Assembly: GCA_032718475.1 (NCBI GenBank)
Contig: JAUCBJ010008826.1
Span: 1 to 64,000 of the forward strand
Direction: 5' to 3'
Origin: Nemertoderma westbladi
Taxonomy: Eukaryota; Animalia; Xenacoelomorpha
Length of the DNA stretch: 64,000 nt
Positions 20,356-64,000 of this stretch are shown here, piece by piece. The translations under genes were made by a program, and so were the position numbers. Position 1 is the first letter of the stretch. Every line of letters begins with the position of its first letter. Below the pieces are notes generated by a model that was given only the letters and a program-made list of their open reading frames with translations, had not been told where the DNA came from and did not search any database.

Positions 20356-21522
20356 TGTAAAAGCTTTTGCGGAATTAGCCGGTTATTTTCCCCGTAAAGT
20401 ACTCTGTAGTTGGTTTAACAGGCATAAAAGGCCGTATCCTTACTGTACTGGTGTTTTAGTGGACATAAAAAGCCATTTCTTCTGTATGTGTACTTTAGCG
20501 GACATAATTAGCAATTCTATGACGCAAGGCGCTAGATCCTCTTGAAACAGTGTAGTTACTATGACGACAGCTAACAGCTGAGCTGTACACGTGTAGCTTT
20601 TTCCTTGTTCTCTGGTGTTTCTTTGTTCGGTCAACCAATCAGAGCGATTCTCCTGCTTTTTGTACAGAAACCTCCGGGAAATCGCGCAATGCATTATGGG
20701 TCAATGTTTACATTTTGTCCTGAGCCCAGAAGACCGGCTTTTGGAATCTCTGTGTTTTCAGTCTTTAGCCCAACATTAGTAGGCTTAATTATAGAACGTA
20801 TATCTGTTATCTCACTCACCTAATCATATTGTCAACTACAAACACCGCATTTTTACTGCTATTTACTGTCGGTTATTCATTATATCAGTTGATGGAATAT
20901 TATTATATTTGGAATACCGATAAATAATTACAAAACCCTCAATCTTCTTGATATACTGAATGTAAGAGAGACCGGTTACATATAACGATTGCGACTTACA
21001 TTAAAGTGGGTTTGAAGTGAATCTAATGCTATTTCATAGGCACTACATGTATTGGTTGTTGTTCTCTTTATATGTGACTAAAATTAGTGAAGGTCGGCAG
21101 ATCGGTGTGCAGCATTGTGCAGTATTGTGTATGATTGTGACTGATAACAAAGCATCTCCTAAAGAATGCGCCATATACGTGAATCTATAGCCATCCCGTT
21201 GTGTCTAGTTTAAGTCATAACTCTGTTTACATATTTAGAGCGCCACGTCCTAAAGGAACTGTTAATATTTCCCGAAAGTGAATAATATTTGTCAGAGATT
21301 ATATATTACGATCAATTGAATAATACAGTAGGCCTACACCGCAATACGGTTAGGCTTCCGAATCCAGTCTCCCGGGTATATCCAGCGGGTGAATGGTCGT
21401 GCATAGACTGGCTTCGGCTAATGTAGTGTATCAAATACTCGTCATAGGCTAAAGACGATTCATTATCTAGAAGACATCCCAATTTGGCAGGTTAAACTGC
21501 TAAAGGTCTAAAAGCGCGAACA
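20356..21522 (+). repeat. 5' LTR of copy 2
   Basis: TGTAAAAGC...GCGCGAACA, directly repeated at 33338-34503. Confidence 0.96.
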
Positions 21523-21536
21523 ATAACAGATATACG
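21523..21536 (+). promoter_or_regulatory. Non-tRNA primer-binding site complementary to an LTR-internal motif (putative self-priming PBS)
   Basis: ATAACAGATATACG immediately after the LTR is the exact reverse complement of CGTATATCTGTTAT at 20797-20810. It has no TGG start. Confidence 0.7.
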
Positions 21537-21805
21537 CTTCTTTATTGCAACGTAGGCAATAAAGCTGAAGTACCGGCCAACCGGTACCCAATAGGCCTGA
21601 CTACCTAACCACCCGGACCGGTACTTACAGCAGTACAGGTACAGCAGTATTATTTCGATTGTGATATTGTATACCGGTAGGCTGTTTAAGAGATTAGGGA
21701 CTGTACACCCCTTGTTTCTTTTGGAGCTTACTTATTTCTGTCAGGTTTTATTTATTTGTAGGTTAATATTGAGCAGAAGACGTGTAAGCCTGCTCAGATT
21801 ATACA

Positions 21806-22385
21806 GATAATTTGTAGGCTGGACTGTTGTCTGACTGTTGTTAAGTCTGAAGGGACTGTAGTGTGTGTAGAGTGTATGTCCGATAAAGTGCCAGTTGGGA
21901 ACGTAGGGGCTTCCAGTGCTGTGAGGTAAACCCCCTCGAAAGAATAAGTCGTACTACTCGGTTAGAACGCATACTAACTAACCATTTTGGAGTCTGCATA
22001 TACTGTAGTTTATTTAGGCTTGATAGTAGTCTGCCAGCGTTTGGTCTGTACTTTGTTTGTGTAGTCTGTACGGGTAGCGTAATATTTCTTATTTAGATAA
22101 TTTGTAGGCTGGATTGTTGTCTGGCTGTTGTTAGGTCTGAAGAAATTTCGGTGTGTGTAGAGTGTATGTCCGATAAAGTGCCAGTTGGGAACGTAGGGGC
22201 TTCCAGTGCTGTGAGGTAAACCCCCTCGAAAGAATAAGTCGTACTACTCGGTTAGAACGCATACTAACTAACCATTTCGGAGTCTGCATATACCGTAGTT
22301 TGTTTAGGCTTGATAGTAGTCTGTCAGTATTTGGTCTGCATTTTGTTTGAGTAGTCTGTACGCGTAGCGTAATATTTATTATTCA
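21806..22385 (+). repeat. ~289-bp direct tandem duplication in the 5' leader of copy 2
   Basis: The block starting AGATAATTTGTAGGCTGG occurs at ~21806 and ~22095. Confidence 0.9.
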
Positions 22386-24084
22386 GAGTTTATGCGATTA
22401 TTCGCAACATTCATATCCCCAAGTTTATTCCTACAGTAATTGTGCTTGTTATATATACCGTTATAGTTAAACTAACCCCGGTACTACATCAGGGCTGCTT
22501 GGCGTAGGTAAAGACTGGTGATTTTGTGCCCCGGTCACTCCAGCAGATACCGTGGTTCTTTTAGCTGTACAAGTATTTCTAACTACTGATTATTTGTTGT
22601 ATAAGTACTTGTACCTAATTTAGGGTTTAGTGTACAGTGCTTTCCGAGGGTAATTAGTGTGTAGGCAGTATAATTGTGTTGTAAAGTGGATAATAGGCAC
22701 GTTGATTCTGGTAGACCGCGGTAATTAACTTCTAGGTAGGAACACTCCGTGATACATAACGTAGTACTTATAGCGATACGGCTATAAGTCGTCAGACGGT
22801 GGTATTTTCCTATCTGGACAACGCAATATATTTACTACTGCTTGTTATTTTCAAATACCGTAGTACCCTGTCCGTTGTAATAACCAGATATTCTAACCCT
22901 TTGTTAGGCTGGTTTGCAGACTTCTTGTAAAATTACCCTAAAAATTCATACGTGTAATTTTTGTGTTTATTTAGAGATTGTAATCTCACCCCGAATTGTA
23001 TGTAATTTGTAGTATTAAGTAACTTAGGTAAATTAGAATTATTTGTTTTAGTGTCCAACAAGTAGCACTTCACTGATAGCGCACAGCTTCTGTGTAGTGA
23101 CTCCTTCCCAGAAATAATAACATTTATTTCAAATATTGACAAAACCCATTATACGGGTATATATATATTATAAATCAACTCAAACCGATTTATAAATAGT
23201 AGGCCTGCCATACAACAATTAGGTCTCAATATCAGTTGGACTACTGCTCAAATAACGGTAATAAAGTAAGTTAAAGTAACCAAGTAACCCCTAAAATTCA
23301 GAAATTCAATAATTCTAAAATAATTGATATACCGGTATTTATAATAGGCTTATTATATTTATTTCTATAAATTTAGGCTGAAATTATACCGGTATTCTGT
23401 AATTAATTCTAGTCTGTAATTATACTTATATATATACATTATAAGTATAAGCTGTATACCGGTATTCACGATAGGCCTATTATATATATTTATATATTTG
23501 TGCTAAAATTATATACTGGTATTCTGTGACAAACCTAGTCTGTAATAATACTTATATATATACTATAAGCATACCGGTATTCTAATATATTATATATATA
23601 TATCACGCTACACTGAGTAGCAGTATCGGTAATTAATTACTAGGCTAACAGTTGATACTGAATTACTAGACTTGCTTTAACTGTAATATAGCAGTAGGCA
23701 TTCAACTGTACAAACAAACATGTCTGACACAAAGCAAAACCTGTCAGACAGCCTCCTAGATACAACCATCTGTGACCAAGAGCGGACGTCCGAGAATGGC
23801 TTCAGTTTTGACCTTCTTGATAAATATTTCTTTCAAAATTGTGATATCAATCTAAACAACTTGAGAATTCTAAGCATTTTGAGCTAAATAAATGAACTCT
23901 AAATATTCACTAGCACCAAATTGCCCACCCACCCTGTACAGCTGTAACAACGTTCTGGAACAAATAAATCATAATCTAAACATGTAGCCCCGGTGGTCTT
24001 CTAATCGTTCCTAAAAATAATTGGTAGATTCGAATTCGCATTGTACAATTAAACATTTCGGAAATAAACGTTTCGGATTATTTA

Positions 24085-24690
24085 CTTAAATAGTTAAATT
24101 TATAAACTTTTTAATTATAAATAAATTAGTTATAAATAAAATCAAAATTTTATTCCACCGATGGGCTACGTGGATGATTATCTACAACTTTGAGTTTCAT
24201 CATTTTCCCGTAGGACCTATAGTTTTCTTAAATAGCGAAATTTATTACCTTTTTAATTATAAATATATTAGTTATAAATAAAGTCAACATTTTATTCCCC
24301 CGATGGGCTACGCGGATGATTATCTACAACTTTGAATTTCATCATTTTCCCGTAGGACCTATAGTTTTCTTAAATAGCGAAATTTATTACCTTTTTAATT
24401 ATAAATATATTAGTTATAAATAAAGTCAACATTTTATTCCCCCGATGGGCTATGCGGATGATTATCTACAACTTTGAATTTCATCATTTTCCCGTAGGAC
24501 CTATAGTTTTCTTAAATAGCGAAATTTATTACCTTTTTAATTATAAATATATTAGTTATAAATAAAGTCAACATTTTATTCCCCCGATGGGCTACGCGGA
24601 TGATTATCTACAACTTTGAATTTCATCACTTTCCCGTAGGACCTATAGTTTTCTTAAATAGCGAAATTTATTACCTTTTTAATTATAATA
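24085..24690. repeat. ~138-bp tandem repeat (~4.5 copies) in the leader of copy 2
   Basis: Repeated CCGATGGGCTACGCGGATGATTATCTACAACTTTG...CCCGTAGGACCTATAG. Confidence 0.92.
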
Positions 24691-25238
24691 TTAGTAATAA
24701 ATTGATCAATTTACTTGAAATTTGGTACACGTATTTCTGGTACCCCCCCTTCATATTGTGTGCAAATTAAAAAAAAAATCGTATCTGCAGTTCCTGAGAT
24801 CGACTGATTTTGGACTAGAGTGTACATATATACTGCTTTGCCACTACCATTATAATTCGCATCATTTACCCACTACTGATTAGCCCCATTCAATAGATTA
24901 ACTGTAAACATTGTTCATATAGTGGATATGTGTATTGCTGGGCAGACTGGCTATAGTATAACATCCGTCATTAAACAACCCCAGTAGTCAGACACTGTGG
25001 TTATCATTAAATCAAATTGTCTATAAATAGTACACATTAGATGGCGGCCATATTACTACTGAGATAACGGCATACTAGCAGCTCTACCTACCTACTGTGG
25101 TTGCCAAGCCAACTCTGAATTAATTCTACCAGCGAACTGCCTTGGTGCTCTTCCCAATCAGATATCGGCAAGATTTATTTCTAATAGTTTTAATTAATTT
25201 TTAATAACTTTAAAACATTCTCACTCGGCCCCTAATTT

Positions 25239-26852
25239 ATGAATTTGGGACGGCGCTTTATCTTGGTAGCTACTGCGCCGGTTTTCTTGCAGGGAAAGGG
25301 CCCTCTCCACCCAGACAGGAGTGTGGAACGTGTGAGACCGAAGTTCAACTCACCTCCTACTGTAAGAAAGATCATCCCTCCAGTAGTAATATCAGACCCT
25401 AGGCTAGTCCAACATCGTAGGTCTATCATAGGCACTCGAGCTCAGGTCAAGCGAGACCAAGAAGCAGCGGAACAGCAGCAACACTCGAGCCGAGAACTTA
25501 TTTCGCAGCGGCCCGACAGCTCCAGTAGTGAGGATACTGTAGAGCTGACACCCGAGCACGGAGCAAAGATGACAGATGCGGTTTATTCGGATCCCCTTCT
25601 CATCCTTCCTGCAGCCGTACTCACTAGGGTATTGATTGCGGTGGAGGAACACCAGATTGATTGGGCGAGAAGTAAGCGATCGACTAAGGATAGTTATGCG
25701 GGATACACAAGGGAAGAACTGAAGTCTATTGTCGAGTCGCAATGGAACTTCCCCGGACCCAGACTCCCGCTTGACTTATCGGAAGCTGCCTGGGAAGACA
25801 TACACAGGATGGGAGTAACCAAGGAAACCATCGATCCAGCTGTGTGGAAGAGGTCCGCAGCAGGATACGTACAGGGATTCTTCAGCTCCATGGAGCGATT
25901 AGAGGAACAATTGTTTAGACAACCACAAGGACCTCAAGAGCAGGGAGAGCTGCTTTATCAAGTTCGAGAAAGAATTCTAAGAATCAGACTAATCCTATCG
26001 GCCTTTGAGGAGGCTTCGAAAAGAAAACAAGGCACGTCGTTGCAAGTTGCCGTAAAGACTTGGTTTCAGCGAGTGAGTCTCAAAGTTCAAGGAACTGCCC
26101 AGTGGAAATCTCAGCTGGCTGAGCGCTCAACTCATGGAGAATCAACAGACGCTACCTTTTCCCAAGTGGAAAGCGAAGCGACAGCAGAGAAACCGCATAA
26201 GAGGGATGCTATTGACATCTATCTGTCAGACTATCAACGCTTTGTAGGTGATGAAGAGTTGAGGAGAAGGCTGGAGGGACTTAGCCCTAATAGTGAAGGA
26301 GCCAAGCTTGTGTTGGACGCAATCGATGCGGATATGAGAGCTGCGAACCAAGCTAAATTTGATGAACGCCTCCACATCACTAGAGTCCAAGAAGAACAAG
26401 TAAAGAAAAAACGTATAGAAGTCAGAAAGACAGCGGCAGTGGCAGCAGCAGTGGCAGCGGCAGAAGCGGAAAGAAAAGCGACAGCGGCAGCGGCAGAGGT
26501 AGAAGCGGAAAGAAAGGCGGTAGAAATGGAAAGAAAAGCGGCGGCGGCGGCAGCGGCAGCGGCAGAGGCAGAAGCGGAAAGAAAGGCGGTAGAAGTGGAA
26601 AGAAAAGCGGCAGTGGCAGCGGCCGAAGCGGAAAGAAAGGCGGCAGTGGCAGCGGCAGAGGCAGTGGCAGAAGCAGAAAGGAGAGCGTCTGAAGAAACCA
26701 CCCAACTAGAATTGGAAAACATTCAGGAGAATCAAGACTGCATAAATAAACAGTTAACAGCTAGTCAAATGCAGATGATGGGTGGATCAACTCCCAAAAG
26801 ACAGGGATATACATCATCTGAGGAAGGCGATACCACCGATCTTGAAGGCTGA
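25239..26852 (+). CDS. Long N-terminal Gag extension with Ala/Glu/Lys (EAERKAA)n coiled coil
   Basis: 537-aa ORF directly upstream of gag. Copy 3 reads openly through the region homologous to ~26900-27050, suggesting an originally continuous ORF. Confidence 0.65.
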   Translation: MNLGRRFILVATAPVFLQGKGPLHPDRSVERVRPKFNSPPTVRKIIPPVVISDPRLVQHRRSIIGTRAQVKRDQEAAEQQQHSSRELISQRPDSSSSEDTVELTPEHGAKMTDAVYSDPLLILPAAVLTRVLIAVEEHQIDWARSKRSTKDSYAGYTREELKSIVESQWNFPGPRLPLDLSEAAWEDIHRMGVTKETIDPAVWKRSAAGYVQGFFSSMERLEEQLFRQPQGPQEQGELLYQVRERILRIRLILSAFEEASKRKQGTSLQVAVKTWFQRVSLKVQGTAQWKSQLAERSTHGESTDATFSQVESEATAEKPHKRDAIDIYLSDYQRFVGDEELRRRLEGLSPNSEGAKLVLDAIDADMRAANQAKFDERLHITRVQEEQVKKKRIEVRKTAAVAAAVAAAEAERKATAAAAEVEAERKAVEMERKAAAAAAAAAEAEAERKAVEVERKAAVAAAEAERKAAVAAAEAVAEAERRASEETTQLELENIQENQDCINKQLTASQMQMMGGSTPKRQGYTSSEEGDTTDLEG

Positions 26853-27048
26853 GGAAATAGATCTCGTCTAAGCAGACGTAGAAGAATGTCCCACCGTCAG
26901 AAATTGCCTGATTTGCACCCAGCTGTTAGAAGGCAACTAACTAACACAAATTTAGGTAGTACAGAACCCACAGACCAAATAATTAACATAGAAAGACATA
27001 GTAGATGAGCCCGAAATAATTAGGCCTGTTCTCGAAGCCACCCCTTCG

Positions 27049-30000
27049 GTGATAGAGACACCTGTACTCCCTGAACCTATCTCTAAATTCCCCCTGCACA
27101 GCATTAAGCTACCTGTGCCCAGCAGAACAGCCCATGAGACAGTTCATGTCCTGGACTCCGAGCGAAATATTAATGATTTGTCGCCCATTGTCCCTCGTCC
27201 GCCCGCTACAACGTTGGCGACTCCCGCTTCGGCGGTCGAGTGGGTGGATGAGAGACGGCGGGGGATGGATCTCCTGCTCGGGCAGATGCAGGAGACTGTT
27301 AAGCAGTTCAAGGGCACAGTAAGGGAAAGTAGGTTAGAGTTGCAAGAAGTGCAGCAAAGTATCGCGTTAGAACGCGATAAATTAGTAAATACACAAAAGG
27401 GTATACCACCACCCCCTGTAACAATGTGTCAACCTGTTAGGTCTGAAGTATTTCATGCGCAAGGTGTGGAGCCTACATGCATCTATACTGCTAGCGAAGT
27501 GGAAACTCCTATAGTAAACCCTATTAAGGGTAATTATAAACCTGTTGACAATGATATTCCATATAGACTTGATAATAATCCGAGAAATTTATATACCGAT
27601 AACTCGATATTAAATAACACGATGGCCCAAGAAAGTTTTACGCGTCAAATGGCTAGAACCGAAGCCCGTCAAGCGGTAAAGATGGGAGAGATCGTCAAGT
27701 TCAATGGAGATGAGATGAAATGGTTACCTTTTAATGAATATTACAAAGATAACATACAGAACTCTGTGCTATCTAACGGAGAGAAACTTAGATTCCTCAT
27801 CGAGTGCTTGGAAGGATCTCCCAAGTTAATGGCGTTAAAGTTTATTGGACATCCCGATGGATTAAGACAAGTTTGGGATACCCTAAACATCAGGTATGGT
27901 AATAGGAATAACATAGCTAGGTATTTATATGCAAAATTGGTAGCGCCCCGAAAGTTCATTAGCAGCGGGATAATAGAGTTTTCCGATGAGATTCAAGAGA
28001 TCTGTAGACAATTAGATTGGCTAGGTAAGTCTCATGAATATCAGAGTTCTATGGTTATTGGAGCTGTGGCTTCTACCTTACCGAAGGGTGGAGTAGGTAC
28101 ACGCTGGGATAAGAAAGTGTTATATATGATGGAACAGCAACGACGAGACCCTACCATGGCTGATCTCATGTCATTCTTAGATGGAGAAGTGAAATTACAG
28201 CTCCTAAAGCAGTCCAGAGAGAAGACACCGGAAAACAAGGTAAGTGAGAAACCCGTTTCTAGGAGAAAGGTAACCCCAGTGTGTTATACCGACGACGGCG
28301 AAAGCCAGGCTTCTCAAGGAGAGGACAGCGGGAAAGACACTGAAAGATCTTATTATGTCAATAAAACGCCTAAAGAACAGGTAAGTAAATTCAAGTCTCG
28401 AACCAAAGACAGGAGAGAACAGGTAAGAAAAACTCCTCCTACTTCTCCTAAGAGAATTCAGGTAAGAAAGCCCGAAGAAAGAACGAGTGTGCACAATGTT
28501 ATTCAAAATAAGGTAAGTAACATCAAACCGAAATGTGTGCTATGTGACGGGACCCATCGTTTGAATATGTGTGATGAATTCCTAAAGAAATCATTAACGG
28601 AGAGACGGGAAGTCATGTGGGATAAGCGGTTGTGTTATAATTGCCTCAGACAAGGACACCAACGGCGAACCTGTTACTCCGACACAAGGTGTGCAAAGTG
28701 CGGTGCGAAACATCATATCTTGTTGCACACTGAATTCGAACGAAACAGCCCGAGTCAGGTAAGTGATTCCGAACTACATGTCCAATTCAGTGATGTGAAC
28801 GACACTGACCAAAGTTCTGAGATGGAAGGATTCTATACGGATGAATTCTCCGACGAAGATGAATCCTGTTACATGATAAATACCGCAGTGTATCGAGCAC
28901 TTACGTATGAAAAAGACACAGACAGCGAGCTCACCCTAACTACTTCTGATCGACAACCATCTTGGAAAGCACTAACTTCCAATGTAGGAATCTGAGAATT
29001 TCCTGTAGTACAGTTAAGGGTCCACGGACCTAAGAGGAGTTATATAGTGAACGCCCTCCTTGACTCCGGTAGCACAGGAACATTCATCGACAAAGAACTA
29101 GCCGAAGACATCTTTGCTGGACAACACAAGTTCCGAACTAAGCTAAACATGTCAGGAATTATGCAGGTTTGGAAATCTACAGTAATAGCGGATTATTATG
29201 TAGGTGCGTTGTCCACCCCCCAGGATGAACTAGGAGAACACAGCATAAGGTCAGTAAAAATGGTGGCGATAAAGAACTTCGCTACCAGCCAAGTAGAACC
29301 TTATAACTGGGATGAGGACGATTTCACCCAGCAGTTTGATATACCTAGATTCAACACCGATTACCCTGGAGTGCAAATACTCATCGGTCAAAATGCGCAC
29401 GAGGCGCTCGAGACATTGGAGAAACGGCCTGCTCAACCGCAACCACTACAAGCTTATGCGGGAAGAACTAGAGTGGGTTGGTACTTTACTGGCCCTTCCC
29501 GTAGAACTCTCATGGAAAGATTACCGAAAGATCAGGTATATCAAGTAAGAGAATGGGAAGCGGAGAGCAGTGAGGTAGACGACCCAACTGAGGGAACACC
29601 ATACTCCTCAGATAATGACGATATTAACTCCAATGTAGATCAATGGAGACATTGCCCCAAGACGATTAATCTGGCCGACATCGCTTCCAGAGGAGCAACT
29701 CCTCAAGAACTGACAGATACTCCAGACAGGTTAGGTGGACCCGATTTCCTAAGTAGAGAAGATGAATGGCCTCCTCATCTTACCACGGCTGAGATTAGAC
29801 AAGCCAAGGGAGCGGAGAAAGTCAAACCTAAAACCCGGACGAGTAAATCAAGGTTATTTAAACCCGTGATAGATCTGTCTGTACTACACATTGCCAGGGA
29901 CGACGCTGTGGATCTAAACTCCCCCACCACGAACCGATCTGTTGTGGAGATCAGAGAGAGAGACTGGAGATCTGGAACACCAGACGTCTCGCCGGGACTC

Positions 30001-30273
30001 TCACCTCTCCTGCCGGGAGCGATGGACCACTATAGATCCTGGAATCGGCTTTGTAAGGCCGTCGTGTATTTGAAGCGATGTTTCTATCGTCACTATTCCA
30101 GGACGAAGAGGAAACCTGGAATTGTCTTCGAGATACAGCAGCTCAATCGCCCAGTTGGTCGTTTATGTTTACTGGAAAGAGACCGAGAACTGTCCGGAAA
30201 CTATGGAAGGCAAGATACTCTTCCCACGACCACCTCCCTAATCCAACAAACATCTAGGGACTCCCCAACGTAA
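27049..30273 (+). pseudogene. BEL/Pao gag + aspartic protease + fused pol remnants
   Basis: KFNGDEMKWLPF...EKLRFLIECLEG (DUF1759-like); triple knuckle CVLCDGTH..C, CYNCLRQGH..C, CAKCGAKHHILLH; LLDSGS. Stop at 28993. Deletions near 29625 and 30110 keep the frame open. Confidence 0.9.
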
Positions 30274-31902
30274 CATCGTCTGGAGTGGGTGTGTGACTAT
30301 ATTATTTTATATTCTTATTATTTTATATTTATGTATGTATTATTATGTAATTTTATTATAATCATTTTCTTTAATTTTATTTAGTAGAATGTTATTTTAG
30401 CGATTATTTAGTAGATTAGTGCAATATATATTAGTGTTTATTACTTAATTACTTATATATTATATATTTACAGCGACGGCGAGAAATAATTCTTTTTCTC
30501 TTTCCTTACTGTCCGTGTTACATTACAAATACGTAACTACAGTAAGATGAAATATCCGTACTTATTAAAGTACAATAAAGCCACTACTATATTCAAGTAT
30601 TATTGGTAGGCAGAGTATTAGGAATGCAAAGTTCAGATCCTCGTGTCTCGGCTAAACCAAGCTCTGGGTAGACCTTGGAAACGACTTGCCTCTTCACACT
30701 GACATTGCTTCGTGCGATATTGCTCTTCTACTTTATATTAAATAATACATATAGTAGCGTGATGTCCCTCTAACAGTAGCGTGAAACGCAAATAAATCTG
30801 TTAAACCTTTTGACCATCTGTAATTCTAGTCGATTAAGATATCGCGGCACCCACCGATATACTTGAAAGACAAATTCTAGAATCAGTGGTTAACGTCCCC
30901 AGACAAGTTCTGGAATAAACTGGTGCCCATCCTAAATATTAATTATTAATATTTACAAAATCTGTCAAATTTTAGATCCTTTAAAATTCTAGTCTATTAA
31001 GATATCGTAGCACTTACCGATATTCTTAAAAAGACCAATTTCCTAGAATCAAGGATCCTAGTCCCCAGACATGTTCTGGAATAAAATTGTGTCTATTTAA
31101 TATTAAATAATAAAATTTACGGGAATAAATTTAAATTCATATTTTAATGAATTTGATAAATTGTCATTTTTATGCAATTTATAACATTCCCAAAATTCCA
31201 TAAATTAATAGATCATGGGAGCGGAGATTCACCCTATTAAGTATATTAGTGTGCGAGAATCTCCAATATGTAGTCAATAGCCGATAAAATTCATAAAATC
31301 ATGTATAGAGAGGATATTGACCATTAAAGAATTACTATTAAATAGCATCCCAGATCTGTATGCATGAGAATTACCCTAATTCTACCGCTAGCTTTCCATA
31401 ATGTCACCATGGCAACAACCACGCTAGAATTAGAAGTGAGTCCAAAGAACAATAAAGCTTGCCCATTGAATAGCATAAGGAATAAAATAGCACACTACTA
31501 GTATCCCAGGATACCCAATAATAACGTGGCATTCTGGAAGGCACTGACTAATGGACAAATGGCCCGAATGTGTGCGATTTGTGACAGTTGTGTGGATTTT
31601 GTGCGTTTATAGGTGAATGTTACTACTAAAGTGTGTTTACAGTAGCGAGTCGCAATTGTGAAAGTAGCCCTAACTCTCCAGTAAGAACCTGAAGTAAATC
31701 TAAGCCTTTGGGACGGACGGTGGAGTGACTCGCGCTGGTTGTTGTAGTCGTTGTGCAGCTACGACGTTGGCGATAGGCACATCGGCGAAAGTACACCAGC
31801 GCTGAGGATCTTGCGCTGTCCGGGGGCTGAGAGGGGTAGGCAGCGACGCTCGCTAGCCTAAATATAAACTCATTATAATATTGATAAACTCATATAGCAG
31901 AT

Positions 31903-33259: not shown

Positions 33260-33337
33260 CTGTTTAGAGTATTTTTATATTTTAGAAACTGTGATTTTTT
33301 ATATTTTATAGACTTAAATCCCATTTTCTGGGAGCGG

Positions 33338-34723: not shown

Positions 34724-34980
34724 TAGTTTTCCCTTCTATGTGTTTCCATATCACGAGATAGATTGCCTTGTCTCATTTCTTTATTACAAACCATACAACT
34801 TTCATGTCTATGCATTATATAGCAATGTCAATTGATAGTATTGAATTTTAGCTAAATGATTTTACAAAATTTTAAATAAATAAAGCTTTTGTGAAAATAA
34901 ATAAATCTTTTTAAAATAAAAATTAGAGAATGAATGGGAATGCGGTGATGTCCGTATTATAGAGGGAGGCTAGAAAGGAA

Positions 34981-49172: not shown

Positions 49173-49909
49173 ACTGTTCTTAACTTTGCACATTCGTATT
49201 TTTCATTTTGTAAGGTAAACGGACCGCTTGTATCCAGATAAGTTGTATCCAATTTTCTTTTCGTAGCTCAGAAAGTGATCTTTTGCATCCCGATTTTACA
49301 TTTTATATCCAAGTTTTATTTATGGGTTTTATCAATGCAATTACATCGTATTGTTGGCTAATCTTTAAACAATTAATTAGATGACCTATAAATTCCATCC
49401 CCCGAATGATATACTGTTTTTATTAACTATAGAATTATAATAATTAATTGTTTTAATTATAAGTATTATTATCCCATATTAGTTAGCTTATTATTATCTT
49501 CCCACATTCCCATCTTCCCACATTCCCATCTTCCGACATTCCCACCTTCCCAACCACCTTCCCATCTCCCCACCTTCCCACCCTCCCACCTTCCTACCAT
49601 CCCAGCTTCCCTCCGACCGACCGACCAACCCACCGTCCGACCAAGCCACCCACCCACCTACCCACCCCTTTAAACAAATGTTGACCCATTTTATTTCGAC
49701 TTTCCTGGGCACTCTGGGAAAGTTCACACGGGCCGGGGTTTGGGGGTGGCAGCCCCCAACAAAAGAAACGGGGGTTTGGGGGCGGTAGCCCCCAATTAAA
49801 AGAAAAACAAATAAAATTTGAATATAAAAATATTTCTTTTATAATTTTGAAAAAACTTCTCTAGATACAACTTGTCCTGTAACCATCTTTAACTTTTGTT
49901 TATTGCTTT

Positions 49910-51062: not shown

Positions 51063-51140
51063 CCGCTCCCAGAAAATGGGATTTAATTCTATAAAATATA
51101 AAAAATCACAGTTTCTAAAATATAAAAATACTCTAAACAG

Positions 51141-54100: not shown

Positions 54101-55394
54101 GTAGAGAGTAGGTTCGTCCACGTTCGATGTCTTCCTCGAGATTCTGGATTTCTCTATCGAACTGAGGTAAAGCTAATTCTTTCACCGCTTGGACTTGTTG
54201 CTGCAATTTGCGTTTCTCTAAACAATCGTAAGTTCCTTTTCCGATCTTCTGCCGAATAGCGTCTAACGCGTTTCGTACAACGCTCTCTTCGACTTCGGAA
54301 ACGGGTTGTATCGGGGTTAAGCCTGGACGGTTGTACGGGTTAAACGGCGATATTAGATGACCGCGTCCTAATCCGGCTAGGTAGGGTTGGCGAATATCTA
54401 GAGAGCCCACTACCGGAGTGCCACCGATTAATTGTTCGGGTAACACAAGATCTTTAAATAGTGAGTACAGTTCAGGGGGATCCGTTATACTATTAGGATC
54501 AAGCGTTTGAGGTCTCACTGAGGAATGAGGAGGTCTGACCGAGTATTCCGGAACTCTGATCATCGGTTTATTTAAGGATTGTTTGAGTCGAGCGAGCGTA
54601 GGTGATACGTCGAACAGGTTTCGCTCGAAACTCCCATAAGTATATCGTGTAAAACTGTGTTTAGCGCAACGTCTCCGCGGATGTTTATGTCTTTCCGTTT
54701 GCTGATTGGGTCTAGGGCATTCATCACAGTAATACCAAAGACGCACGTCCTGCAGGGGAAACGCGGGTGATCGTTCTCCAGTTTTACAATATTCCTCCAT
54801 CTGCTCGAAGCTATCTGGGACGACAGGTAGCGGTCGATCGGCGGTAAGATACATCATAGTAAAATAGAGTCGTTTGAGTTCTATCATAGGGTCATGATGT
54901 ATACCTTGAGGATATCGAGTTTCTAGATTTTGTTGACTGGCAATATTGAGATATGTTTCTCTCAGGAATTCCAGATAATCGTTGAAGTCGCTGCGTTTAT
55001 CCGGCTCTTCAACGTCTTCCCTTTCGAGTCTGTTTCGAATAGAATTCTCGTGTTCTATTCTCGGTTTATCGTTCCGACTCCGCTGGGTATGATATTTAAA
55101 TAAAACCATTTCCCTTTCGGTGTCTACATCGTCCGTATCGTGTAAATCGATAGGATGGCCAGTAGTTAAGAAGTCCATATACGTACCATTACGATGCGTA
55201 TAGCGAGCGGTGAATTTTCTATAGTCCAATTCACACGTAAGTTGCTCCTGGGACATTGGCGGTTCGATATAACGACCATCATCCTCTGTAGTAGTTGGAC
55301 CAGCGTCGCCGCGTATCAAGCTATCAACAAACGCTTGTAAAGGTAGAGTATATCGCTCCCTGATACCAAGATCATCTTCTATCAACTCAGTCAT
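51141..55394 (-). pseudogene. Full-span extra ORF (~1400 aa): N-terminal Cys/His motif, coiled coil, DEDDy-like exonuclease domain, CCHC knuckles, basic tail
   Basis: Collinear pieces 52854-55394, 52053-52838, 51483-52034 and 51141-51407 are separated by point stops. The 3' half matches the open ORF 164-2425. Confidence 0.85.
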
Positions 55395-57032
55395 ATCTGC
55401 TATATGAGTTTATCGATATTATAATGAGTTTATATTTAGGCTAGCGGGCGTCGCTGCCTACCCCTCTCTGCCCCCGGACAGTGCAAGATCCTCAGCGCCG
55501 ATGTACCGTCGTCGCTGTGTTTTTCGCCAATGTAGTAGCTACACAACGACAACGATAACCGGCACAAGTCACTCCACTGTCCGTCCCAAAGGCTTAGATT
55601 TACTTCAGGTTCTTGCTACAGAGTTAGGGCTACTTTCACAATTGCGACTCGCTACTGTAAACACACTTTAGTAGTAACATTCACCTATAAACGCACAAAT
55701 TCCACACAACTGTCACAAATTGTACACATCCGGGCCATTTGTCCGTTAGTCAGTGCCTTCCAGAATGCCACGTTATTATTATGTATCCTTGGATACTAGC
55801 AGTGTGCTATTTACTCGATATGCTATTCAATGGGGCAAGCTTTCTATTGTTCTTTTAACTCACTTCTAATTCTAGCGTGGTTGTTGCTATGGTGACATTA
55901 TGGAAAGCTAGCGGTAGAATTAGGGTAATTCTCATGCATACAGATCTGGGATGCTATTTAATAGTAATTCTTTAATTGTCGATATCCCCTTTATACATGA
56001 TTTTATGAATTTTATCGGCTATTGACTATATATTGGAGATTCTCGCACACTAATACACTTAATAGGGTGAATCTCCGCTCCCATGATCTATTAATTTATG
56101 GAATTTTGGGAATATTATAAATTGTATAAAAATAACAATTTATAAAATTCATTAAAAGATGAATTTAAATTTATTCCCGTAAATTTTATTATTTAATATT
56201 AAATAGACACAATTTTATTCCAGAACATGTCTGGGGACTAGGATCCTTGATTCTAGGAAATTGGTCTTTTTAAGAATATCGGTAAGTGCTACGATATCTT
56301 AATAGACTAGAATTTTAAAGGATCTAAAATTTGACAGATTTTATAAATATTAATAATTAATATTTAAGATGGGCACCGGTTTATTCCAGAACATGTCTGG
56401 GGACGTTAACCATTGATTCTAGAATTTTGTCTTTCAAGTATATCGGTGGGTGCCGCGATATCTTAATCGAATAGAATTACAGATGGTCAAAGGGTTTAAC
56501 AGATTTATTTTGCGTTTTACGCTACTGTTAAAGGGACATCACGCTACTATATGTATTATTTAATATACGGTATGAGAGCAATATCGTAAGAAGCAATGTC
56601 AGTGAGAAGAGGCAAGTCGTTTCCAAGGTCTACCCAGAGCTTGGTTTAGCCGAGACACGAGGATCTGAATTTTGCATTCCTAATACTCTACTTACCAATA
56701 ATACTTGAATATAGTAGGAGCTTTATTGTACTTTAATAAGTACGGATATTTCATCTTACTGTAGTCACGTATTTATAATGTAATACGAACAGTAAGGAAA
56801 GAGAAAAAGAATTATTTCTCGCCGTCGCACTAAATATATAATATATAAGTAATTAAGTAATAAACGCGAATATATATATGGCACTAATCTACTAAATAAT
56901 CGCTAAAATAACATTCTACTAAATAAAATTAAAGAAAACGATTATAATAAAATTACATAATAATACATACATAAATATAAAATAATGAAACAAATATAAA
57001 ATAGTATACTCATACACCCACTCCAGATGCTG

Positions 57033-60000
57033 TTATGTTGGGGAGTCCCTAGATGTTTGTTGGATTAGGGAGGTGGTCATGGGAAGAGTATCTTGCCTTC
57101 CATAGTTTCCGGAGAGTTCTCTGTCTCTTTCCAGTAAACATAAACGACCAACTGGGCGATTGAGCTGCTGTGTCTCGAAGACAATTCCCGGTTTCTTAAA
57201 GTTACGTCGCATGACGACGAGTTCTACCGATCGCACTAAACCATCATCCGAGATGTGAGTCTCGATGATACGACCTGTCTGCCACCGCTTACGTGGAAGA
57301 TCTGAATCCACAATAAGGACCATGTCTCCAGCGCTGACGTTTTCTTGCTGCTCAAACCACTTAGTTCGAAGTTGTAGATAATGTGTGTAATTTGCAGATA
57401 ATGTTTTTCGAAATGGTCAGCGAAACGACGGGATAACAACTGCATAAGTTGCCAAGTTTGCCGGCAGTATTCGTCTCCGTCTGTGATTTCCGATCGTGGG
57501 AGCATGGCTACAGGTTTCTTCAGTAGGAAGTGCGCGGGTGTTAGCGCTTCCAGGGAATCGGGACTCGATGAGACTGGCATAAGCGGTCTCTCGTTGAGAT
57601 AGGCGGCGATTTCCTCCATTAACGTCCGCAAAAGTTCGTCGGTGAGATACGCGCGGCACGGCACTATGAAGTGAAATGCGGTCTTCACGCTCCTGATTAA
57701 TCTCTCCCAACTTCCTCCCCACCAAGGGGCGTCGGCGGCGTTGAAGGTTCAGCTAGACGCTGTTACCCTTAGCTGATCGTCCACCTGTCTTTGGTTCCAA
57801 TCTTTGACGTAAGCCTTGATTTCATTGTTGGCACCAATGAAGTTCGTTCCCTTATCAGATCTCATCGTGTTACTAGTTCCAAAGCGAGCGATCTGTTGTC
57901 GTAAGCTCAATAGGAAGCTGTTGGTAGATAAATCGTTCACCATATCGAGATGGATAGCTCTACAAGTCATACAAACAAAGATGACACACCATCTCTTGAC
58001 TATAGTCCTAGCACGATATACTTCAATAGGGCCAAATAAATCTACACCGGTATTAGTAAAAGGTGGTTCATAGAAGCTTACTCGTTCCCTAGGTAATTCT
58101 GCCTCTCGCTGTGTTAAAGGCCTACTGAATGCTTTCCTACAGGGTATGCAGTTCCTAAGAACTTGGTTCAGAGCTCTACGGGGTTTATAAAAATAATAGC
58201 GAGTTCGAATTTCGCTAAGAACTCGTTCTCTACCAGCATGATAAAGATTGCTGTGAACATCTACAATCATCTTGATTTGTATTTCCAGATTTCTAATGAG
58301 TATGGGAAACTTAGTATCAAAGGATAATGGAGCATTAATTAATCTTCCTCCAACACGTATCAACCCATCTATCATTGTGCTAGAGAAACGATCCCTTAAG
58401 CGCATCTGTGGATTTCTCAACAACAGGAAGTACTTATCGGAATCCTCATAGCATTGCAGGAGTCTCAGCATCTGCTTATTGGTTTCTTCATGCTCCTGAT
58501 AACTGATCTTCTCCTTCAGAAACCTGTCGGATATCTTATATTTGGGAAGATCTTTAACAACATGAACCTGCACAGATGTCAGTGGAGCGGTATCACTAGT
58601 GGTCTTCGTCCTGGAGTAGTGATGATGAAAACATCGCTTTAAATATGTAATGGCTTTACAGAGCCGATTCCAGGAACTATAATGATGTATCGCTCTCTGC
58701 AGAAGAGGTGAGAGTCCTTGCGAGACGTCTGGTATTCCAGATTTCCAATCCCTCTCTCTGATTTCCACAACAGACTTATTTGTAGCTGTGGGTTTTGGAT
58801 CCAAAGCGTCGTCTCCGGAAGTGTGTAGTACAGACAGATCTACCACGGGTTTAAATAACTTCGATTTACTCGCCCGAGTTTTAGGTTTGACTTTCCCCGC
58901 TCCCTTGGCCTGTCTAATCTCCGCCGTAGTAAGATGAGGAGGCCATTCATCCACTTCTTTGCTTAGGAAGTCGGGTCCACCTAACCAGTATGGAGTATCT
59001 ATCAGTTCTTGTGGAGTTGCTCCCCTGGATGCGATGTCTGCTGGATTAATCGTTCCGGGGCAATGTCTCCATTGATCCATCTTCGTGCGACTAAGTATAA
59101 TGGCTACTCTGTTGGTAACGAAGACGCTGAACTGACAGACTTCATTGGTTATATACTCCAACACGAGTAAAGCATCGGTCCAATAGACAGTTTTCTCCAG
59201 TGGATATTCGATCTGTTCTGTTACATTCCGGCCGATGGCTGTAGCGTATAGAGCCGCTTTTAACTCCGCTCGAGGAACTTTCAACTTGTTGTTTATCAAT
59301 GCCTTAGAGGTAACCAAGGCGACTTTGATTCCATCTGGAGTTTCCACTCTCAGGTAGGCTACTATACCTATTCACATGTCGCTGGCGTCTCCAAACACAT
59401 GGAGTTGATAGGAATACGTAGGGAGAACATGACCAAAATATGAACGGGAAATTATAAAGTTCTCGATGGCTGGTAGAGAATCTTCCCATTTCATCCACTT
59501 CTTTAATAGTTCTCCCTTAAGTGGATCGTCCCATGAGTGGTTTTCAAGCCACATTTGTTGTACTAAACTCCGAGCAATCAATATAACTGGGCTAATAAAT
59601 CCCAATGGATCGAAATAAGTGCTCAGGATACTTAAACAAATCCGTTTAGTCCGAACTGGATTATCTCGCTGTTTGAGCTGGAAAAACAGGATATCTCTCT
59701 CTGTGTCCCATTTCAAACCAAGTGTTTTGGTTTCTGGAAGATCGTCTTTGATTAGGTCTAGATCTTTCGCTCCTCGATCTTCTACCGGAATCGATTCCAG
59801 AAACTCACGGGAGTTGCTGGTGAATTTAGTTAATCGAAATCCACCTCTTTTTAAGCACTCTACCGTTCCTTTGGCGACATCAATGGCTTCTTCCACCGAT
59901 GGAAGGGACTTTAAATTGTCGTCCATGTATATATCCCGTTTGATGTTGTCGATCACCTCTTTAGAGAAGGCGTCCCGGTTGTCATCAGCAGTGGTGCGCA

Positions 60001-63000
60001 CCACTGAGCAGGCGTTTGAAGGGCTTGAGATGATCCCAAAAGCCTGGATGGTCATCCAATACTCCACCGGTTTCTGGTTGAGGTCTCCTTCAGGCCACCA
60101 CAGAAATCGTAGGCTGTCTCGATCCCTATCCAGCGCCTTGACTTGTAAGAACATGCCTTCTATATCGGAGGCAGAAACGATTTAATATTGTCGTAATCTT
60201 AAGAATATTCCCAACAAGGATTGGAGTAAGTTGGGTCCTGATAACAACTCGGAATTAAGGGATTGGCCCATGTAGAGGGCGGAGCCGTCAAATACTACCC
60301 GTACTTCATGGGGTTTACCGGGTTTGGGAACGTAATGATGTGTTAGATAGTACGTTCTCTCAGTTATGGTGTTTCTTCCGGTACTCGCTCCGCATATCCC
60401 TTGTTAATAAATTTCTTCAACTGAGTCTGGTACATTTCTTTAGCTGAAGCATTTGCCGTAAGGCATCGATGTAGTTGAGCAATTCTTTTCTCCGCCAAGG
60501 GTCGGTTGTTTATGAATTTTGGTTCTTGCTTTCGGAATGGTAGACCGATTTCATATCTACCTTGATCTTTAAGAAAACGTGTAGTTGTCTCCTGGATCTG
60601 CTTGGCTCTTTCTTCTTCTACCAATAGGGCCTTATCGTAGGAATTGGGCTCTACAGCCTCTTGAGTAAAGAATCGCACGGTGTGTTCATCCCGAGTCTTC
60701 ACGTTATAGCGCTCTATTACGTCATTCAGTTCGTCGTTATAGTCGACTTGTCCTGATGGACGAATGTGTTGACATAGGTTCACTTGGTTTTGCCAAGTCT
60801 CGTTTTCCGTAAGGAGGTTGATGGTATTCTCCTCGTCGAAGAGTTGGTGGATATCGTCATTATCTGAGGAGTATGGTGTTCCCTCAGTTGGGTCGTCTAC
60901 CTCACTGATCTCCGCTTCCCATTCACTTACTTGGTATACCCGTTCTTTTGGTAACCTTTCCATGAGAGTTCTACGGGAAGGGCCAGTAAATTACCAACCT
61001 ACTCTAGTTCTTCCCGCATAGGCTTGTAGTGGTTGCGGTTGAGCAGGCCGTTTCTCCAATGTCTCAAGCGCCTCATGCGCATTTTGGCCGATGAGTATTT
61101 GCACTCCAGGGTAATATGTGTTGAATCTAGGTATATTAAGCTGCTGGGTGAAATCGTCCTCATCCCAGTTATAAGGTTCTACTTCGCTGGTAGCGAAGTT
61201 CTTTATCGCCACCATTTTTACTGACCTTATACTGTGTTCTCCTAGTTCATCCTGGGGGGTGGACAACACACCTACATAATAATCCGCTATTACTGTAGAT
61301 TTCCAAACCTGCATAATTCCTGACATGTTTAACTTAGTTCGGAACTTGGGTTGTCCAGCAAAGATGTCTTCGGCAGTTCTTTGTCGATGAATGTCCCTGT
61401 GCTACCGGAGTCAAGTAGGGCGTTCACTATATAACTCCTTTCAGGTCCGTGGACCCTCAACTGCACTACGGGAAATTCTCGGATTCCTACATTGGAAGTT
61501 GGCGCATCTAGGTATATTAAGCTGCTGGGTGAAGTCGTCCTCATCCCAGTTATAAGGTTCTACTTCGCTGGTAGCGAAGTTCTTTATCGCCACCATTTTT
61601 ACTGACCTTATACTGTGTTCTCCTAGTTCATCCTGGGGGGTGGACAACACACCTACATAATAATCCGCTATTACTGTAGATTTCCAAACCTGCATAATTC
61701 CTGACATGTTTAACTTAGTTCGGAACTTGGGTTGTCCAGCAAAGATGTCTTCGGCTAGTTCTTTGTCGATGAATGTCCCTGTGCTACCGGAGTCAAGTAG
61801 GGCGTTCACTATATAACTCCTTTCAGGTCCGTGGACCCTCAACTGCACTACGGGAAATTCTCGGATTCCTACATTGGAAGTTGGTGCTTTCCAAGATGGT
61901 TGTCGGTCAGAAGTAGTTAGGGGGGGCTCGCTGTCGGTGTCCTTTTCGTACGTAAGTGCTTGATACACTGCGGTATTTATCAGGTAACAGGATTCGTTTT
62001 CGTCGGAGAATTCGTCCGTATAGAATCCTTCCATCTCAGAACTTTGGTCAGTGTCGTTCACATCACTGAATTGGACATGTAGTTCGGACTCACTTACCTG
62101 ACTCGGGCTGTTTCGTTCGAATTCAGTGTGCAACAAGATATGATGTTTTGCGCCGCACTTTGCACACCTTGCGTCGGAGTAACAGGTTCGCCGTTGGTGT
62201 CCTTGTCTGAGGCAATTATAACACAACCGCTTATCCCACATGACTTCCCGTCTATCCTTTAATGATTTCGTTAGGAATTCATCACACACATTCAAACGGT
62301 GGGGCCCGTCACACAGCGCACATTTCGATTTGATGTTACTTACCTTATTTTGAGTGACGTTGTGCACACTCGTTCTTTCTTCGGGCTTTCTTACATGAAT
62401 TCTCTTAGGAGACGTAGGAGGAGTTTTTCTTACCTGTTCTCTCCTGTCATTGGTTCGAGACTTGAATTTACTTACGTCTTTAGGCGTTTTGTTGACATAA
62501 TAAGATCTTTCAGTGTCTTTCCCGCTGTCCTCTTCTTGAGAAGCCTGGCTTTCACCGTCGTCGGTATAACACACTGGTGTTACCTTTCTCCTAGAAACGG
62601 GTTTCTCACTTACCTTATTTTCCGGTGTCTTCTCTCTGGACTGCTTTAGGAGCTGTAATTTTACTTCTCCATCTAAGAATGACATGAGATCAGCCATGGT
62701 AGGGTCTCGTCGTTGTTGTTCCATCATATATAACACTTTCTTATCCCAGTGAGTACCTACTCCACCCTTCGGTAAAGTAGAGGCCACGGCTCCAATAACC
62801 ATAGAACTCTGATATTCATGAGACTTACCTAGCCAATCTAATTGTCTACAGATCTCCTGAATCTCATCAGAAAACTCTATAATCCCGCTGCTAATGAACT
62901 TTCGGGGGGCTACCAATTTTGCATAGAAATACCTAGCTATGTTATTCCTATTACCATACCTGATGTTTAGTGTATCCCAAACTTGTCTTAATCCATCTGG

Positions 63001-63998
63001 ATGTCCAATAAACTTTAACGCCATTAACTTGGAGATCCTTCCAAGCACTCGATGAGGAATCTAAGTTTCTCTCCGTTAGATAGCACAGAGTTCTGTATGT
63101 TATCTTTGTAGTATTCATTAAAAGGTAACCATTTCATCTCATCTCCATTGAACTTGACGATCTCTCCCACCTTTACCGCTTGACGGGCTTCGGTTCTAGC
63201 CATTTGACGTGTAAAACTTTCTTGGGCCATCGTATTATTTAATATCGAGTTATCGGTATATAAATTTCTCGGATTATTATCAGGTCTATATGGAATATCA
63301 TTGTCAACAGGTTTATAATTACCCTTAATAGGGTTTTCTATAGGAGTTTCTACTTCACTAGCAGTATAGATGTGTGTAGGCTCCACACCTTGCACATGAA
63401 ATACTTCAGACCTAACAGGTTGACACATTGTTACTGGGGTTGGTGGTATACCCCTTTGGGTATTTACTAATTTATCTCTCTCTAATGCGATACTCTGCTG
63501 CACTTCTTGCAACTCTAACCTACTTTCCCTTACCGTGCCCTTGAACTGCTGAACAGTTCCTTCCATCTCCCGGACCTGCTGAGAGGAGCACTTACGGTGT
63601 TCCATCAGCTGCCCGAGCAGGAGACCCATCTCCCGTCGTCCCTCAGCTACCCACTCGACCGCCGAAGCGGGAGTCGCCAACGTAGTAGCGGGCGAGCGAG
63701 AGACGACGGGCGATAAATTCTTGATATCTCGCTCAGCGTCCAGGACGGGTTCGGACTCGTGAACAGTCCTACTGGGCATAGGTAGTTTAGTACTGTGCAA
63801 AGGGAATTTAGAGGTAGGTTCTGGGAGTACAGGTGTCTCTATCACCGAAGGGGTGGCTTCGAGAACAGGCCTAATTATTTCAGGCTCATCTACTATAGTA
63901 GGGAGTCTTTCTATTTTAATTATTTGGTCTATGGGTTCTGTACTACCTAAGTCTGTGCAAGCTAGTTGCCTTCTAACAGCTGGGGGCAAGTCAGGCAA
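57033..63998 (-). pseudogene. BEL/Pao gag-pol (Gag, protease, RT, RNase H, integrase) with stops and frameshifts
   Basis: BEL triple knuckle; LLDSGS; RT MFLQV..LRFLW..IYMDDNL; RNase H LHVFGDAS, VPRAELKAA, YWTDA, QWRHCPGTINPADIASRG; integrase H..LYHAG..CIPC, TGVDLFGP, RSDKGTNF; C-terminal WQTGRI...DGLVRSVEL. Confidence 0.95.
61125..61885 (-). repeat. ~380-bp tandem duplication of the protease region in copy 3
   Basis: 61125-61504 is nearly identical to 61506-61885, and LLDSGS occurs twice. Confidence 0.92.
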
Positions 63999-64000
63999 TT

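Follow-up and report, generated by a model that had tools for sequence, protein, structure and literature searches.

The window analysed here, a stretch of 64,000 nt of the Nemertoderma westbladi genome to whose positions all coordinates refer, holds three copies of one family of long terminal repeat (LTR) elements, designated el0, el1 and el2, and a solo LTR. The el1 copy occupies 20356-34503 on the forward strand and is bounded by TG...CA LTRs at 20356-21522 (1167 bp) and 33338-34503, which are 98.8% identical to each other, with the 5-bp target site duplication (TSD) CATCG just before the 5' LTR and after the 3' LTR. Its gag, with a DUF1759 domain and three zinc knuckles, and its protease lie at 25236-29624; RT, RNase H and most of the integrase have been deleted, and an extra ORF persists as remnants of its N-terminal part and C-terminal tip (31888-33259), the exonuclease and knuckles being absent. 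The el2 copy lies on the reverse strand and comprises a gag-pol at 57033-64000 in the order PR-RT-RNase H-IN, with stops, frameshifts and a 5' end beyond the window, an extra ORF, and a 3' LTR at 49910-51062 that is 84.6% identical to the el1 LTR. The two copies are placed in the same family because they are 85-95% identical at the DNA level. The el0 copy, on the forward strand, is represented by 756 open codons of the extra ORF (155-2425), in which both exonuclease and knuckle motifs occur, and by the 3' LTR (2505-3723) of the most divergent subfamily, and the solo LTR (17598-18783, reverse strand) is flanked by the TSD CTATG. Summing segment lengths gives an estimate of about 20 kb for a complete element, including a repeat-rich leader of 3.7 kb.

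On its gag and pol domains the family is filed under BEL/Pao (Belpaoviridae), with profile matches to DUF1759 (E 1.7e-11), Peptidase_A17 (E 8.2e-22) and Integrase_H2C2 (E 3.8e-7), a BEL-type order of the pol motifs (PR-RT-RH-IN) and RNase H motifs in el2. The TG...CA LTRs of about 1.2 kb, the three-knuckle DUF1759 gag, the Peptidase_A17 protease and the 5-bp TSD are likewise as in Belpaoviridae. The ICTV profile of that family describes an 18-nt PBS for tRNA-Arg or tRNA-Gly, a length of 4.2-10 kb and no third gene beyond an env-like one (PMC8742986), and terms BEL/Pao replication poorly understood while assuming that it is tRNA-primed. The present family lacks the typical tRNA-Arg/Gly PBS and length, and differs from the profile in a self-complementary PBS without TGG, a size of about 20 kb and a third ORF of non-membrane type.

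This third ORF, which follows the integrase, spans about 1,417 codons in el2 (51141-55394, reverse strand) and consists of an N-terminal part of no assigned domain, a DEDD-like domain, two tandem CCHC zinc knuckles (51873-51977) and a basic tail. An RNase D-like 3'-5' exonuclease domain is predicted at 52557-53290, with motifs ExoI at 53246-53232, ExoII at 52970-52935 and ExoIII at 52619-52599. Of the three in-frame stops in the el2 ORF (52854-52856, 52053-52055 and 51483-51485), the first interrupts the exonuclease domain, and the region from 54023 to 51298, containing both the exonuclease and the knuckles, is without counterpart in el1. The extra ORF is under strong purifying selection: its dN/dS is 0.082 across 756 codons, and that of the exonuclease part is 0.07. 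No membrane span was predicted in it, and an env role is unlikely, the highest 19-residue hydropathy values being only 1.07 and 1.37.

The first-pass annotation had described the product as a 3'-5' exonuclease-like/CCHC protein, a description that the D-x-E, ExoII-like and Y-x3-E motifs and the two knuckles uphold, although no curated cut-off is reached directly. Visual inspection finds D-x-E, D and Y-x3-E in el0, in el2 and in the homolog P0001, the fourth catalytic position being E (Y-x3-E) as against the canonical ExoIII Y-x3-D; ExoII and ExoIII align with P0001, and ExoI is out of register in the MAFFT alignment. The exonuclease domain had no Pfam match, including none at the curated profile cut-off of PF01612 (RNase D/WRN); the match to the NCBIfam RNase D model (E 0.0038, 16.5 bits) covers the ExoII region only and lies below the curated cut-off, and that to RNase D in PDB has an E-value of 0.88. 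A word-index protein search with the exonuclease region gave zero matches, and among 1.84 billion representative proteins P0001 was the single homolog, further protein searches returning only the same protein. P0001 retains the pairing of exonuclease and knuckles; its knuckles resemble those of retroviral nucleocapsid, and the knuckles of the extra ORF match them. Structure predictions of the exonuclease-like domain are of low confidence (pLDDT 32 and 30) and an Atlas search with the window's own domain gave no usable match, whereas P0001 reached 0.94 with PF01612 clusters (the family being on 34% of members) in 25 of 30 matches. Through this one homolog there is a weak indication that the extra ORF holds an RNase D-like DEDD domain, for which RNase D is the nearest named family by sequence and which is best called exonuclease-like rather than a filed member.

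The PBS (21523-21536) adjoins the 5' LTR of el1, does not start with TGG and is the exact reverse complement of the LTR segment 20797-20810, the candidate self-primer, which lies about 712 nt away. The match is contiguous over 14 bp at offset 0, so that DNA synthesis from a primer whose last base is 20810 would begin at the LTR end. It goes no further than these 14 bp, and a primer assembled by splicing need not be invoked. Shuffling the LTR 5000 times with dinucleotides preserved never produced a match of this length (shuffle maximum 13), and among 11,775 internal positions only 21523 shows a 14-bp match to the LTR. The complementarity thus exceeds chance, and the self-complementary PBS of the first-pass annotation is confirmed. 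Neither a TGG-type site adjoining the LTR nor a tRNA gene in the window was found.

The core of the primer segment is conserved in all five LTR copies of the window, with identities of 13/14, 13/14 and 11/14 in three other subfamilies; the el0 LTR has A, not T, at the last primer position. The position matching 20803 is A in three of the five LTRs, those of el2 and the solo LTR among them, and A21530T, which is the most frequent variant of the PBS among public contigs, pairs with an LTR A at 20803, the two being unphased. This variant is the deepest among the listed PBS substitutions in two sequencing runs, X1 with 26 contigs and X3 with 16, and occurs in the one X5 contig as well, position 20803 being absent from the 40 of 234 substitutions listed for the runs. 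Among the listed PBS changes C21527T and C21535T retain G-U pairs, A21532T and A21534T from public contigs would disrupt pairs, and indels concentrate at 21534-21537, so that a core of some 11 nt remains, which is the Tf1 length. A PBS that is self-complementary and co-varies with the LTR points towards priming without a tRNA in this BEL family, which, to judge from its sequence, likely self-primes from its own terminal repeat.

A match to TATAWAWR with one mismatch lies inside the primer segment (20799-20806). Each of these AT-rich LTRs contains 9-12 such matches; this is the only one common to all five, the one co-varying base sits on a W position of the consensus, and YCA occurs 27-30 nt downstream in each of the four subfamilies. 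The TATA-like match and the downstream YCA fit a location of the primer segment in U3. The identity of the el0 LTR rises from 46% upstream of the primer segment to 81% from the equivalent of 20851 onward, as expected near a U3/R border. Directly 3' of the segment lies an A/C-rich, G-poor linker of variable length (20811-20850), unpaired in the consensus fold, followed by a predicted splice-donor-like site (20959-20967) found in four of the five LTR copies, the el1 5' LTR having a rare letter at 20961 within it. A predicted U5 hairpin (21483-21504) is invariant across the five copies, and a 9-bp hairpin is predicted directly after the PBS (21540-21564; mean pair probability 0.93). The primer-PBS duplex is predicted for RNAs starting at 20770-20797 (mean pair probability 0.96-0.99) and not for those starting at 20700-20760 (0.0), in folds of 760-900 nt, lengths at which such predictions are unreliable. 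The R-U5 consensus fold showed no covariation support (term +0.7; double change in 6 of 200 pairs), and 20300-25300 gave no Rfam match.

A self-complementary PBS and a selected DEDD-like/CCHC ORF occur in one BEL family. That this family has both traits, as had been claimed, is thus upheld, but no single copy of the window shows the two together: el1, with the PBS, is without the exonuclease domain, and the 5' ends of the domain-bearing el2 and el0 lie outside the window. The sample of BEL loci from metagenomes comprised 117 loci, 42 of them of at least 4 kb, of which 19 were dropped as truncated and 23 had both ends readable; some of the latter repeat one family (L070/L108/L115, L112/L114/L118, L135/L138), and their PBS types are TGG motifs assigned by a pattern written after viewing the sequences, not tRNA matches. 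All 23 of these distant loci carry neither trait, which speaks neither for nor against a coupling, and the extra ORF was found in none of the 117. Viral contigs contained no relatives of the RT piece or of P0001, genome contigs no match to P0001 and metagenomes no match to the LTR-end pattern. Sixty viral matches to a loose integrase pattern are attributed to chance, none matching pol, and a stricter pattern had no match in viral or genome contigs.

Tf1 offers the closest comparison for the priming site. Its self-primer is released by an RNase H cut according to the excerpted text of PMC7175516, in agreement with the first-pass annotation, and the Tf1-type complementarity of PBS and LTR, as defined in an excerpt of PMC6317226, is found here (14 bp, offset 0). 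Shared with Tf1/Tf2 of Schizosaccharomyces pombe, Tj1 and the Tf1/sushi group are a PBS that adjoins the 5' LTR and pairs with at least 11 nt of the LTR, the lack of a tRNA site and a U5 hairpin near the LTR end. Unlike Tf1/sushi, with its Ty3/gypsy chromovirus pol, the present family is BEL/Pao by its domains, and it departs from the Tf1 group in the primer-to-PBS distance of about 712 nt, in its ~1,417-codon extra ORF and with regard to the Tf1 'pretzel', whose two flanking duplexes were not found (21% and 48% of shuffles had equally good energies), local predicted hairpins flanking the PBS instead. The family may thus work like Tf1, to judge from sequence features, without being a Tf1/sushi member.

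For the extra ORF, the comparison is with the DEDDy ORF3 of the bdelloid rotifer LTR retrotransposons Vesta and Juno and of Athena/Terminon elements (PMC5408684), also an RNase D-like exonuclease in an extra ORF after the integrase. One acidic residue is altered in both, to DEED in the rotifers and, read by eye, to E at the fourth position here. The rotifer ORFs belong to another retrotransposon lineage, and the present protein is far longer and carries tandem CCHC knuckles. Rotifer LTR elements acquired DEDDy ORFs on at least two occasions, and the Penelope-like Athena has them as well; a role in RNA 3'-end processing was proposed for these ORFs, and neither PBS, tRNA nor primer binding is mentioned (PMC5408684).

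The reading that we favour, at a probability of roughly 0.55, is a Tf1-like self-priming by 11-14 nt of the element's own LTR RNA, freed by its own RNase H, alongside an independently captured accessory protein, a predicted RNA-binding 3'-5' exonuclease, acting elsewhere. Transcription would start at or just before 20797, making the primer segment the 5' end of the RNA; the fold-back duplex would form between the U5 hairpin and the hairpin after the PBS, and an endonucleolytic cut at 20810/20811, by RNase H as in Tf1, would give the 3'-OH. Where the primer is the genomic RNA's own 5' terminus, an exonuclease does not suffice to release it, and its role is likely at another step than priming; as proposed for the rotifer DEDDy ORF3s, the exonuclease-knuckle protein might trim the 3' termini of small silencing RNAs, or of the element's RNA, in the particle.

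The first-pass annotation had instead proposed a coupled system in which the exonuclease makes the primer or the protein chaperones it. The occurrence of both traits in one family and the strong selection on the ORF agree with such a possible coupling, and the analysis found nothing that shows the ORF to be primer maker or chaperone. In one route, with the segment in U3, its 3' copy (33779-33792) in a co-packaged genomic or spliced RNA would pair with the PBS, the knuckles would aid annealing and the DEDD domain would remove poly(A) and R up to the duplex, so that strand transfer would need R from a second RNA; in another, a loose cut in the linker 20811-20850 would be followed by trimming to 20810. 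RNase D, the nearest named family, trims single-stranded 3' trailers of structured RNA (PMC5408684), the linker is variable in length and unpaired, and the only homolog found retains an exonuclease with matching, nucleocapsid-like knuckles. On the other hand, gag already carries three zinc knuckles, Tf1 manages without such an enzyme in the account excerpted from PMC7175516, DEDDy ORFs occur also on Penelope-like elements (PMC5408684; excerpt of PMC6431247), and only one family shows the traits, with no match to the ORF in the metagenome loci. The copy with a PBS and without the domain counts little against it, as the domain can be supplied in trans and the deletion may be younger than the insertion. 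Overall, an exonuclease-made primer appears unlikely. It depends on where transcription starts, for the primer site, followed by YCA at +27 to +30, is also TATA-like: were the start downstream of that site, only an RNA 3' end could supply the primer, and trimming would be a fitting step there. The specific version in which the segment is the LTR TATA box in U3 and the RNA 3' end is annealed by the knuckles and trimmed by the DEDD exonuclease is quite improbable; if true, it would constitute a third LTR priming route, by neither tRNA nor RNase H cut. BEL elements of the C. elegans Cer7/Cer13 type, reportedly treated by Malik and co-workers in 2000 and Ganko and co-workers in 2001, are said to carry an RNase D-like domain and an element-encoded tRNA-like primer; if so, both a BEL exonuclease and an element-supplied primer would have a precedent, lowering the novelty and raising the odds of a coupling.

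A further reading, with a possible parallel in the exonucleases of large RNA viruses, is that the domain proofreads or polishes the cDNA 3' ends of an unusually long genome, unrelated to priming. The ~20-kb element is twice the 4.2-10 kb of the ICTV profile (PMC8742986), DEDDy ORFs occur on Terminons of 40 kb (excerpt of PMC6431247) and some enzymes of the PF01612 family have single-stranded DNA as substrate (PMC5408684); with RNase D as the closest named match, and with much of the extra length made up by the ORF itself and the 3.7-kb repeat-rich leader, we consider it very unlikely. Least credible is a purely structural pairing of LTR and PBS (RNA circularisation, or a translation/packaging switch) with priming by other means such as a tRNA fragment. 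Half-tRNA primers are known in other LTR elements (excerpt of PMC6317226), but here the pairing stops precisely where the LTR does, a PBS copied from host tRNA in each cycle would not track the LTR variant, and no TGG-type site adjoins the LTR.

Literature searches found no account of tRNA-free priming in this BEL/Pao family. With self-priming and a separately acting exonuclease as the favoured reading, the family, about twice as large as described for BEL/Pao, has an exonuclease-like gene that is strongly conserved, and the position of its transcription start would separate the ordinary Tf1-like route from what would be a new, exonuclease-made primer.

Four insertions of one LTR retrotransposon family were identified within the 64-kb window. 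These include el1 (20356-34503, plus strand), which carries two LTRs (1167 bp, 98.8% identical) with TG...CA ends and a 5-bp TSD; el2 (49910-64000, minus strand), the 5' end of which lies beyond the window; el0 (1-3723, plus strand), a 3' remnant; and a solo LTR (17598-18783, minus strand) with its own TSD. The family shows Pfam matches to DUF1759, Peptidase_A17 and Integrase_H2C2, and the motifs of its pol follow the order PR-RT-RH-IN; it was therefore assigned to BEL/Pao. The el1 and el2 copies are 85-95% identical across their overlapping parts, with RT, RNase H, most of the integrase and the counterpart of el2 54023-51298 absent from el1. With the missing lengths added, a complete element would sum to ~20 kb, whereas the ICTV profile of BEL/Pao gives 4.2-10 kb (PMC8742986). 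A 3.7-kb leader (21537-25235) separates the primer binding site (PBS) from gag; it contains tandem repeats in three sets (21799-22387, 23328-23603 and 24081-24702) and has no Rfam match. The protease region of el2 carries a 379-bp tandem duplication (61125-61884, minus strand), the copies of which are 99.5% identical.

The el1 copy is inserted in a simple-repeat stretch, the minus strand of which reads as a Glu/Asp-rich frame at 19962-20355 and resumes past 34503. Two inverted copies of another repeat (15849-17597 and 35299-37840; 88-94% identical) contain palindromic tandem arrays, the solo LTR lying at the edge of one of the copies. Fragments of two non-LTR retrotransposons (4451-6866, plus strand; 11765-13527, minus strand) show Pfam endonuclease and RT matches.

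The family probably primes itself from a segment of its own LTR, a reading to which we assign a probability of roughly 0.85-0.9 on the basis of sequence. The PBS of el1, which lacks TGG, begins at the first base past the 5' LTR (20356-21522); its 14 bases (21523-21536) are perfectly reverse-complementary to LTR 20797-20810, with no further match at either end. A 14-base match was not reached in any of 5000 dinucleotide-shuffled LTRs, and among 11,775 internal positions only 21523 has one. The primer segment is a conserved island, of which the three other subfamilies retain 13, 13 and 11 of the 14 bases; its last position is A instead of T in the el0 LTR. T20803 of el1 is replaced by A in all three, which predicts the PBS variant A21530T. 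Public contigs were aligned over 21496-21565, with three sequencing runs (X1, X3 and X5) contributing and a fourth (X4) yielding none. A21530T is the deepest substitution listed in X1 (depth 17,153 of 68,839; 26 contigs) and in X3 (14,485 of 72,817; 16 contigs) and is carried by the single X5 contig. In all these runs contig depth does not equal copy number, LTR and PBS variants are unphased, and some of the contigs beyond 21522 represent flanks of 3' LTRs or solo LTRs. Among the five other substitutions listed, C21527T and C21535T preserve G-U pairs, and A21532T, A21534T and T21531C (the last seen only in X5) would disrupt pairing in the absence of a matching LTR change. Indels are concentrated at 21534-21537.

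The ORF following the integrase likely holds an RNase D-like domain, as judged from sequence comparison. In el2 it forms one frame of ~1,417 codons from ATG 55394 to the stop at 51141, interrupted by three in-frame stops, and 756 codons are still open in el0. Comparison of el0 and el2 gave dS 0.79 and dN 0.065, and the ratio of 0.082 (0.07 in the exonuclease part) indicates that the protein mattered to the element. Annotated directly, the domain scores weakly: it has no Pfam match, RNase D was matched in NCBIfam at E 0.0038 (ExoII region) and in PDB at E 0.88, and the Atlas gave no usable match for the window's own domain. A scan of 1.84 billion representatives yielded a single homologue, P0001 (E 5.7e-6, ~30-32% identity), from one ENA contig of 9449 bases. 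It has the same layout, an exonuclease-like domain followed by two tandem knuckles, and at least one further lineage thus possesses the module. The knuckle region of P0001 gave a match to retroviral nucleocapsid (E 1e-4), and in the Atlas its first domain reaches a score of 0.94 with PF01612 clusters. Visual inspection of el0, el2 and P0001 shows the acidic residues as D-x-E, D and Y-x3-E. The N-terminal ~660 residues (53420-55394, minus strand) are without a Pfam match and include, by eye, a Cys/His cluster and a Q/E-rich stretch predicted to be coiled-coil-like; no membrane span was predicted in the ORF.

A splice-donor-like AG/GT at 20959-20967 (junction 20961/20962) is kept in four of the five LTR copies, down to 75% identity. 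The el1 5' LTR carries a rare letter at 20961, where ~99.5% of X1 contig depth is G. The initial ATG of the extra ORF (55394 in el2; 31903 in el1) comes just after an AG, and RNA spliced from this donor would be without the PBS. A primer assembled by splicing need not be invoked for this family.

Cer7 and Cer13 of C. elegans reportedly combine an RNase D-like domain with a self-encoded tRNA-like primer. DEDDy ORF3s were acquired at least twice by the rotifer elements Vesta and Juno and are also common to the Penelope-like Athena elements; a role in RNA 3'-end processing or silencing was proposed there, activity was not demonstrated, and PBS and tRNA are unmentioned (PMC5408684). The words 'primer', 'tRNA' and 'exonuclease' appear nowhere in the main text of a survey of 7,861 BEL elements (PMC3118150). 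Our literature search, mostly short of full text, found nothing joining LTR retrotransposons, self-priming and DEDDy, and no self-primed or exonuclease-bearing BEL element named.

An exonuclease requires a free 3' end. Under a Tf1-like geometry, the primer segment would form the 5' end of the genomic RNA with its 3' side continuous with the template, so that an endonucleolytic cut would be required; RNase H motifs are present in the element, and trimming would at most tidy a loose cut within the variable linker 20811-20850. In line with this geometry, the LTR-PBS duplex is predicted only with an RNA start at 20770 or later, and LTR identity to el0 climbs from 46% to 81% across the primer-segment region. 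The pretzel duplexes of the Tf1 structure (PMC10085805) are absent from the BEL family, which counts against it, although predicted hairpins bracket the duplex, an invariant one in U5 and another just past the PBS. The alternative geometry places the segment in U3, where it would be found only near RNA 3' ends. With TATAWAWR and YCA taken as consensus motifs, the segment contains the only one-mismatch TATAWAWR match common to all five LTRs, the co-varying base sits at a W position and every subfamily has a YCA 27-30 bases farther downstream; such one-mismatch matches are frequent (9-12 per LTR), which makes this a weak sign. By our judgement the Tf1 geometry is favoured over U3 by about two to one, and with this weighting any role of the extra ORF in priming appears unlikely.

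The first-pass annotation had placed a self-complementary PBS and an exonuclease-like/CCHC ORF in one family, and had proposed that the ORF's protein could trim or chaperone an LTR-derived RNA annealed to the PBS. Both traits are real at the family level, but they are not seen together in any single copy of the window: the exonuclease-like domain is lost from el1, the copy with the PBS, and el0 and el2 have the domain with no PBS visible. Across families, 117 metagenome loci picked by one BEL integrase motif were sampled, of which 42 are at least 4 kb long and 23 of these have both ends readable. None of the 117 matched the extra ORF or P0001 (E 1e-3). All 23 scorable loci have a TGG-type PBS, none has an 11-base self-complement there, and 13-508 bases separate pol from the 3' LTR. 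The sample is distant (RT pieces mostly 25-38% identical) and partly redundant; it shows that neither trait is the BEL default and does not address coupling. In one distant BEL element (L094, oriented by pol), with a leader of >3 kb, TGG-type PBS-like sites occur twice, at ~8016 and ~8058 (a spacing of 42 bases), each preceded by the same short LTR-end motif.

Both traits of this oversized BEL family are real and unusual, and their coupling is a testable hypothesis for which the analysis gave no positive evidence. If the primer segment does lie in U3, trimming through poly(A) and R as far as the duplex would be the natural primer-making route, with R supplied by a second RNA.
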